This document shows positions 10,045-10,113 of a DNA stretch of 22,290 nt, in pieces (position 1 is the stretch's first letter; the number at the start of each line of letters is the position of its first letter). The notes under the pieces were generated by a model. The model was not told the DNA's origin. It worked only from the letters and a program-made list of their open reading frames with translations, and ran no database searches. The stretch lies in the IMG/VR virus record IMGVR_UViG_2526164629_000012, positions 1 to 22,290 of that record; one strand, written 5' to 3'. Source of the DNA: a virus. Taxonomy: Duplodnaviria > Heunggongvirae > Uroviricota > Caudoviricetes. Both the position numbers and the translations under genes were made by a program.

Positions 10045-10113
10045 TTTCTATTTCTATTTCTATTTCTATTTCTATTTCTATTTCTATTTCTATTTCTATT
10101 TCTATTTCTATTT
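10045..10113. repeat. Hexanucleotide microsatellite (TTTCTA), about 11 tandem copies
   Basis: Perfect tandem repetition visible at 10045-10113; intergenic, about 320 bp upstream of the 590-aa gene start and about 200 bp upstream of the HNH gene. Confidence 0.95.

Follow-up and report, generated by a model that had tools for sequence, protein, structure and literature searches.

We examined a stretch of 22,290 nucleotides (hereafter the window) that corresponds to positions 1 to 22,290 of the IMG/VR record IMGVR_UViG_2526164629_000012, a virus of the Caudoviricetes, and that carries a perfect (TTTCTA)n microsatellite. The array lies within an AT-rich spacer of 581 bp (9728–10308), which separates the divergently transcribed genes for a protein of 590 residues and for an HNH endonuclease. 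The 590-residue protein is read from a TTG at 9727 on the minus strand, 316 nt from the start of the array, and the HNH gene from an ATG at 10309 on the plus strand, 195 nt beyond its end; as the two genes diverge, the array is upstream of both. Tandem Repeats Finder (TRF) delimits it to 10043–10113, with a period of 6, 11.8 copies, 100% matches, no indels and a score of 142. In the TTTCTA phase it consists of 11 full units (10045–10110) with a leading TA (10043–10044) and a trailing TTT (10111–10113), and a direct read of positions 10040–10117, TAATA(TTTCTA)11TTTGTTG, agrees with the TRF result. A first-pass annotation of the window had described a perfect hexamer of about 11 copies at this place, between and upstream of these two genes, and the read, the TRF result and the divergent starts at 9727 and 10309 confirm it in each of these respects. 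The array proved to be a homologue of a variable-number tandem repeat (VNTR) that is used to type Escherichia coli that make Shiga toxin (STEC). The features on which this identification rests are as follows.

10043–10113, no strand assigned: perfect hexanucleotide microsatellite found by TRF, AAATAG on the other strand, homologue of VNTR-9 / O157-9 / TR1 / Vhec4.
10029–10044, no strand assigned: conserved left anchor GTGGTCTGTTTTAATA; in O157:H7 an end of the insertion sequence IS30 abuts 10028/10029, and homology to the window begins here.
10121–10127, no strand assigned: T-run to the right of the repeat, a second slippage-prone tract; relatives have T5, T6 or T7, the window T7.
10187–10206, minus strand: annealing site of the TR1 primer ACTGCATGATAAGCCTCAGG, 0 mismatches (primer from PMC2246123).
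10298–10324, minus strand: site of the labelled PulseNet VNTR-9 forward primer GCGCTGGTTTAGCCATCGCCTTCTTCC, 0 mismatches (primer from PMC3321953 Table A1).

A perfect array of 66 nt with a period of 6 fixes about 60 bases, which corresponds to a probability of roughly 4^-60 per position, and chance is excluded as its origin. Every other tandem array that TRF found in the 22,290-base window has 2.5 copies or fewer. A scan of GTDB with the array and its right flank gave 0 matches. (TTTCTA)6 by itself was found in 91 stretches of GTDB species representatives. These belong to unrelated taxa, among them Proteus, Shewanella, Vibrio, clostridia and Bdellovibrionales, and no Escherichia representative is included. 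The scatter of the motif over such taxa indicates independent origins in AT-rich DNA, with no tie to the genes that surround it here. The earlier remark that such an array is unusual for E. coli-type DNA is supported.

The repeat in the window is a homologue of a long-published STEC typing locus and is in this sense already known. The name O157-9 is reportedly that of Keys et al. in 2005, TR1 that of Noller et al. in 2003 and Vhec4 that of Lindstedt et al. in 2003. In the O157 scheme for multiple-locus VNTR analysis (MLVA), the unit of TR1 is the 6-bp motif AAATAG (PMC2246123 Table 2); AAATAG is a rotation of the reverse complement of TTTCTA, and the window has the unit of VNTR-9. Vhec4 is equated with TR1 and O157-9 (PMC3768571 Table 1) and VNTR-9 with Vhec4 and TR1 (PMC3321953 Table 1), the latter table listing 15 alleles for VNTR-9 with 6 to 23 repeats, a diversity index of 0.90 and null alleles at a frequency of 31.7%. 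The current MLVA scheme of 17 loci continues to include O157-9 (PMC10062581). Both right-hand (HNH-side) primer sites of the published assays are present in the window, and that of the PulseNet forward primer overlaps the ribosome-binding site and the start codon of the HNH gene. VNTR-9 of O157:H7 and the window share the 6-bp unit, the 16-bp left anchor, the right flank with its exact primer sites, the downstream order of HNH, ninG, phosphatase and Q genes, and the range of copy numbers. The first-pass annotation had observed the repeat correctly but had not recognised in it a published and routinely typed VNTR. Our search of the literature for a prophage context or a function of VNTR-9 returned no such description.

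To compare the tract among relatives we parsed 43 loci, namely the window, 28 IMG/VR contigs obtained by a left-flank search, 3 IS30-linked loci from IMG/VR, 9 loci from complete E. coli genomes and a phage record, and 2 loci from Escherichia albertii. The repeat number ranges from 4 to 23 units and all length differences are multiples of 6. Exact matching of 250 nt of flank on each side divided the loci into 15 haplotypes, the largest of which (n = 12) contains tracts of 6, 8, 9, 9, 11, 11, 14, 15, 16, 17, 18 and 23 units; the flank haplotype of the window itself occurs with 11, 10 and 7 units, and the E. albertii copies have 6 and 11. In an evenly spaced sample from 5,426 complete E. coli genomes, the match spans imply 5–17 units where the locus has the form found in the window (the intact form), against 5 to at least 12 units where it has the O157:H7 form. 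As 6 to 23 units stand behind identical flanks, tract length mutates at a rate that greatly exceeds that of substitution. The variant units TTTCTG, TTTCCA and TTTCAA occur in 21 tracts, in 17 of them within the last three positions, and it is the pure TTTCTA run that varies in length in these tracts. This pattern, read with what is established for microsatellites, points to slipped-strand mispairing during replication (replication slippage), acting on the pure 5' part of the tract. Slipped-strand change in copy number had been proposed from the window alone, and the comparison bears it out: the copy number is clearly not invariant among relatives but changes in whole 6-bp steps, over 4–23 units among the 43 loci and over 6–23 units in the identical-flank set. 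The near-identical strain pairs H36/H37, H5/H6 and H39/H40 have equal match spans, which points to a tract that does not change over very short evolutionary distances, a property that a typing marker needs.

The left-hand side of the locus differs between the window and O157:H7. The left-hand primers (CACTGAAGCCTGTTCCGTTC; GTGTCAGGTGAGCTACAGCCCGCTTACGCTC), namely the second TR1 primer and the PulseNet reverse primer, do not occur in the window even when up to 3 mismatches are allowed, and of the 37 IMG/VR stretches recovered with the TR1 primer only 3 also hold the partner primer (L036, L044 and L056). In these three amplicons the sequence to the left of GTGGTCTGTTTTAATA consists of an element end and an N-terminal coding region; we took the terminal sequence and the encoded MRRTFTAEEK... 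to be those of IS30, and annotation by the Prokaryotic Genome Annotation Pipeline (PGAP) confirms this. In O157:H7 ATCC 43888 (L070), the repeat adjoins on its left a truncated "IS30-like element IS30 family transposase", and the sites of the four primers enclose the repeat and right flank known from the window. A complementary IS30 remnant is found in strain SMN013SH2 (L069), where it directly adjoins the right end of the window's left flank; the junction is again that of window positions 10027–10029. This strain keeps the 590-residue protein gene and a C-terminal IS30 remnant, which is fused to a truncated tail gene J, and O157:H7 keeps the N-terminal remnant, the repeat and the HNH gene. 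Partial matches in E. coli genomes break at query positions 298–300, that is, at the IS30 junction.

These junctions indicate that the forms in O157:H7 and SMN013SH2 are two complementary deletion derivatives of a single IS30 insertion, and that the canonical O157:H7 locus derives from the configuration seen in the window: IS30 inserted 16 bp left of the repeat, and deletions flanking IS30 came afterwards. IS30 arrived when the repeat already existed. The truncated IS30 16 bp to the left of VNTR-9 in O157:H7 carries the left-hand primer sites, whereas the window has an intact spacer and the 590-residue protein gene. As the window is without the primer sites in IS30, both published primer pairs would fail to amplify it and would give a null allele. 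Prophages of the intact form are thus invisible to the published assays, which is one possible explanation for the 31.7% null alleles at VNTR-9 (PMC3321953).

Among complete E. coli genomes, 525 of 5,426 hold a match to the locus, which is always chromosomal. In 245 of these 525 genomes 80% or more of the query is matched, which marks the intact form; this form occurs in strains labelled O26, O111, O145 and O103 (non-O157 STEC), and some O157 strains have it as a second copy; among the matches listed nearly all others represent the O157:H7 IS30 form. The only phage records with the repeat are those of the Stx1 phages SH2026Stx1 and AU6Stx1. In E. albertii prophages the order is the same, with ninE, the 590-residue protein gene, the repeat, the HNH gene and ninG. 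A low-GC island of about 3 kb (about 7600–10800), with 28–40% GC against about 50% in the flanks, is made up of the 590-residue protein gene, the VNTR spacer and the HNH gene, and outside the IS30-truncated forms these three were always found together between ninE and ninG in both E. coli and E. albertii. This pattern suggests that the low-GC trio behaves as one mobile module.

Collectively, these data make it very likely that the array is a non-coding (TTTCTA)n microsatellite between the divergent genes of a low-GC module of about 3 kb, which in lambdoid prophages of STEC and E. albertii is flanked by ninE and ninG, and that it represents a slippage-variable, probably near-neutral and IS30-free form of VNTR-9. 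Several features speak against a function: there is no sigma-70-like site in the spacer, no Rfam family, no conserved frame in the open reading frame (ORF) over the repeat, and no repeat beside distant homologues of the 590-residue protein. From this missing functional signature, length variation is probably selectively near-neutral, and the tract would serve as an epidemiological clock and not as a switch; a regulatory role for the neighbouring genes appears unsupported. Some observations weigh against this interpretation. Both left-hand primers are unmatched, so that the window represents a homologue of the O157:H7 locus that is typed, not that locus itself. The same unit is retained in the modules of E. 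coli and E. albertii, whose 590-residue proteins are 92–93% identical, and no repeat-free module was found among the loci examined, the shortest allele having 4 units; either recent shared descent or weak selection in favour of a tract may account for this. The plus-strand transcript of the tract would be a G-free, unstructured (UUUCUA)n RNA with regular C residues, which makes a role at the RNA level possible.

The first-pass annotation had raised the possibility of a promoter-geometry switch, in which the repeat number would shift the spacing or helical phase of a promoter or operator and so give phase or strength variation of the 590-residue protein gene, the HNH-ninG-Q genes, or both. The hypervariable tract does lie in a divergent intergenic spacer, and the block from the repeat towards the 590-residue protein gene (9825–9990) is nearly invariant between E. 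coli and E. albertii, so that regulatory sequence may be nearby. A consensus scan of both strands of 9728–10310, however, found no sigma-70-like -35/-10 site, and in a position weight matrix (PWM) scan no candidate in the spacer, overlapping the repeat or not, rose above the background of the window. The best PWM candidate for the 590-residue protein gene (9857–9831, minus strand, with the -35 element TTGACG at 9857–9852) falls inside the invariant block but is about 185 bp from the repeat and below background, and the repeat itself lies 316 nt from the start codon of the 590-residue protein gene and 195 nt from that of the HNH gene. There is no clear preference for odd or even repeat numbers in the spread E. 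coli sample (17 odd versus 11 even, in loci that are not independent). Distant homologues of the 590-residue protein in E. albertii, Salmonella and Providencia are encoded in other contexts and have no upstream tandem repeats of note, which shows that the repeat is not a conserved accessory of this gene family. We therefore find the promoter-geometry proposal very unlikely. Contingency loci of Haemophilus, Neisseria and Campylobacter resemble the window in having a hypermutable short repeat that varies by slippage beside horizontally acquired genes, but their unit is either not a multiple of 3 and located within an ORF, or sits in a -35/-10 spacer or a defined upstream element, with a demonstrated on/off effect. 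In the window the unit is 6 bp, the ORF is not conserved and no promoter-like pair lies across the repeat, so that it does not have the structure of a contingency locus; since the unit length is a multiple of 3, a frameshift switch is impossible.

An effect on RNA was weighed in the same way, and involves the following hairpin.

10165–10190, plus strand: weak terminator-like hairpin followed by a T-run, 5-bp stem with 3 G-C pairs; a consensus match of a kind whose count does not exceed the shuffled expectation.

Here (UUUCUA)n on rightward transcripts from pR would act as a rut-like tract or attenuator that loads Rho ahead of HNH-ninG-Q unless N antitermination is active, with the repeat number tuning its efficiency. 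In the minimum-free-energy fold of the plus-strand RNA the whole repeat is unpaired, and the repeat region is the most G-poor 78-nt plus-strand stretch of the window (12 C against a single G, the C residues recurring every 6 nt). It satisfies a simplified RhoTermPredict-style rule (six C residues spaced by 11–13 nt, C>G), and the hairpin with its T-run is located 50 nt downstream. The nin region of lambda, moreover, is known for its terminators tR2–tR4, which is why nin deletions give N-independent growth. The window resembles the rut sites and terminators of lambda nin in its position on the rightward transcript and in the G-poor, unstructured RNA with regular C spacing that it would give, but it has no sequence homology to tR2–tR4 and the likeness is one of composition only. 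Set against this proposal, 53 plus-strand clusters in the window pass the same crude rule, a C content of only 17% falls below what is usual in known rut sites, hairpins such as this one are equally expected in shuffled sequence, and alleles of 4–5 units, which would be without the pattern, are common. We regard Rho loading at the repeat as very unlikely, and a tunable nin element in the wider sense, whether a Rho-loading tract or attenuator or a DNA spacer in a divergent control region, would also be very unlikely. If such an element did exist, slippage would make lysogens differ heritably in readthrough to HNH, ninG and Q, and with it in the expression of late genes and, in Stx phages, of the toxin, or else in how strongly the 590-residue protein gene is expressed.

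A coding role for the repeat is suggested by an ORF that spans it.

9976–10158, plus strand: 60-residue ORF spanning the repeat, in some genomes annotated by PGAP as "hypothetical protein"; in all likelihood no gene.

The tract would here encode a variable (Phe-Leu)n or (Ile-Ser)n segment of a small hydrophobic protein, with a 6-bp unit, a multiple of 3, that keeps the frame. VNTR-9 is listed as "inside ORF", namely Z3935/Z3936 (PMC3321953), and PGAP annotates the ORF in 6 fetched genomes with 11–23 units (for example WP_072178291.1); 2 further fetched genomes, whose tracts have 5 and 7 units, are without this annotation. A 1-nt indel at 10002 changes the frame of the repeat, which is (Phe-Leu)n in the window and E. 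albertii but (Ile-Ser)n in most E. coli, and the T5, T6 and T7 alleles of the downstream T-run lead to three unrelated C-termini. Direct reading found no Shine-Dalgarno sequence before the ATG at 9976, the ORF has no Pfam, PHROG or PADLOC match, and in O157:H7 IS30 removes its start codon. TTTCTA is open in all three plus-strand frames, so that ORFs arise automatically. When homologues were compared for the features of a small repeat-containing membrane protein, neither the frame, nor a start signal, nor the C-terminus proved to be conserved. The coding proposal is highly improbable and effectively refuted, and the annotated ORF is most likely a by-product of the repeat; the "hypothetical protein" recorded over it in many RefSeq genomes is then most likely spurious. 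In the haplotype of the window, the -1 change at 10002 and a +1 change in the T-run restore the same stop codon for the ORF, which is probably a coincidence.

The suggestion, also made in the first-pass annotation, that the array is the scar of an insertion, either as a target duplication or as the footprint of a mobile element or homing endonuclease, draws on its place in a low-GC module with a homing-endonuclease-type HNH gene and on the IS30 end 16 bp away in O157:H7. IS30 makes target duplications of 2–3 bp, and a 66-bp array of 6-bp units is unlike a target-site duplication. The repeat has identical flanks regardless of IS30 and is present with the same flanks in E. albertii as well as E. 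coli; no repeat-free copy of the module was found that could represent an empty site, and no single TTTCTA unit was seen between element ends. With IS30 the later arrival, the scar proposal is extremely improbable and unsupported.

As a probably near-neutral microsatellite of the VNTR-9 type, the repeat is an ordinary and well-exploited epidemiological marker, and our result mainly removes a false lead. What is added here is an account of the primer sites and null alleles through IS30, a characterisation of the module in its intact form, and evidence that the ORF annotated by PGAP over the repeat is spurious. The locus would be of biological interest only if repeat length affected transcription toward Q.

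The genes on either side of the spacer are as follows.

7955–9727, minus strand: gene for the 590-residue protein, TTG start with an AGGAGG Shine-Dalgarno sequence upstream, transcribed away from the repeat.
10309–10874, plus strand: HNH_3 and AP2 endonuclease gene of homing-endonuclease type, frameshifted in the window, where the ORF stops at 10539.

The 590-residue protein has no match in Pfam, PADLOC or NCBIfam and belongs to PHROG 9230, annotated as "unknown function"; a profile of the family gave only chance-level matches against PDB sequences. An AlphaFold2 model from an alignment of 16 sequences has a mean pLDDT of 40, too poor for a fold search; in this low-confidence model the assigned secondary structure is almost all helical and the first approximately 120 residues are almost entirely unstructured. 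Apart from the E. albertii module copies (92–93% identical), homologues are found in E. albertii (71%) and in Salmonella and Providencia (48–50%). The 71%-identical homologue is encoded three genes from a gene for an NleF-family type III secretion system effector, and those of 48–50% identity are chromosomal singletons, in Salmonella beside genes for a cytidine deaminase and a DUF218 protein. Speculatively, the 590-residue protein may be a secreted effector rather than the product of a defence gene. The short-read contigs L085–L088, which encode the protein or a 58%-identical homologue, begin only about 210–355 nt upstream of the gene; in L085 and L086, whose proteins are 92% identical to that of the window, this start is near the position of the repeat. 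Our guess is that these contigs break at the repeat, and if so, draft assemblies will often be without this locus.

The HNH gene belongs to PHROG 99, and its intact homologue of 188 residues matches HNH_3 (4.2e-11) and AP2 (1.9e-4, with 22.1 bits against a gathering cut-off of 33.3 bits). Its frameshift in the window stems from a 1-nt deletion in a T-run at about 10528 (T5 versus T6 in six relatives) and could mark a real pseudogene or a homopolymer sequencing error. The ORF for the Ser/Thr phosphatase (Metallophos, 11448–11921) likewise has a private 1-nt deletion at about 11842 (A6 versus A7 in four relatives), which cuts the protein to 157 residues in the window, the gene being 666 nt long in annotated relatives. 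Together the two indels hint at prophage decay or at homopolymer errors in the assembly.

A scan of 7600–10800 against Rfam returned no family, only two sub-threshold matches to miRNA models that reflect hairpins. One of these was triggered by a perfect 9-bp inverted repeat, GTATGCGAC...GTCGCATAC, at 7880–7910 (region 7858–7925), just downstream of the stop codon of the 590-residue protein gene, which looks like a bidirectional terminator. Adjoining the inverted repeat, at about 7750–7827 on the minus strand, is a stretch of 78 nt with 0 G and 19 C.
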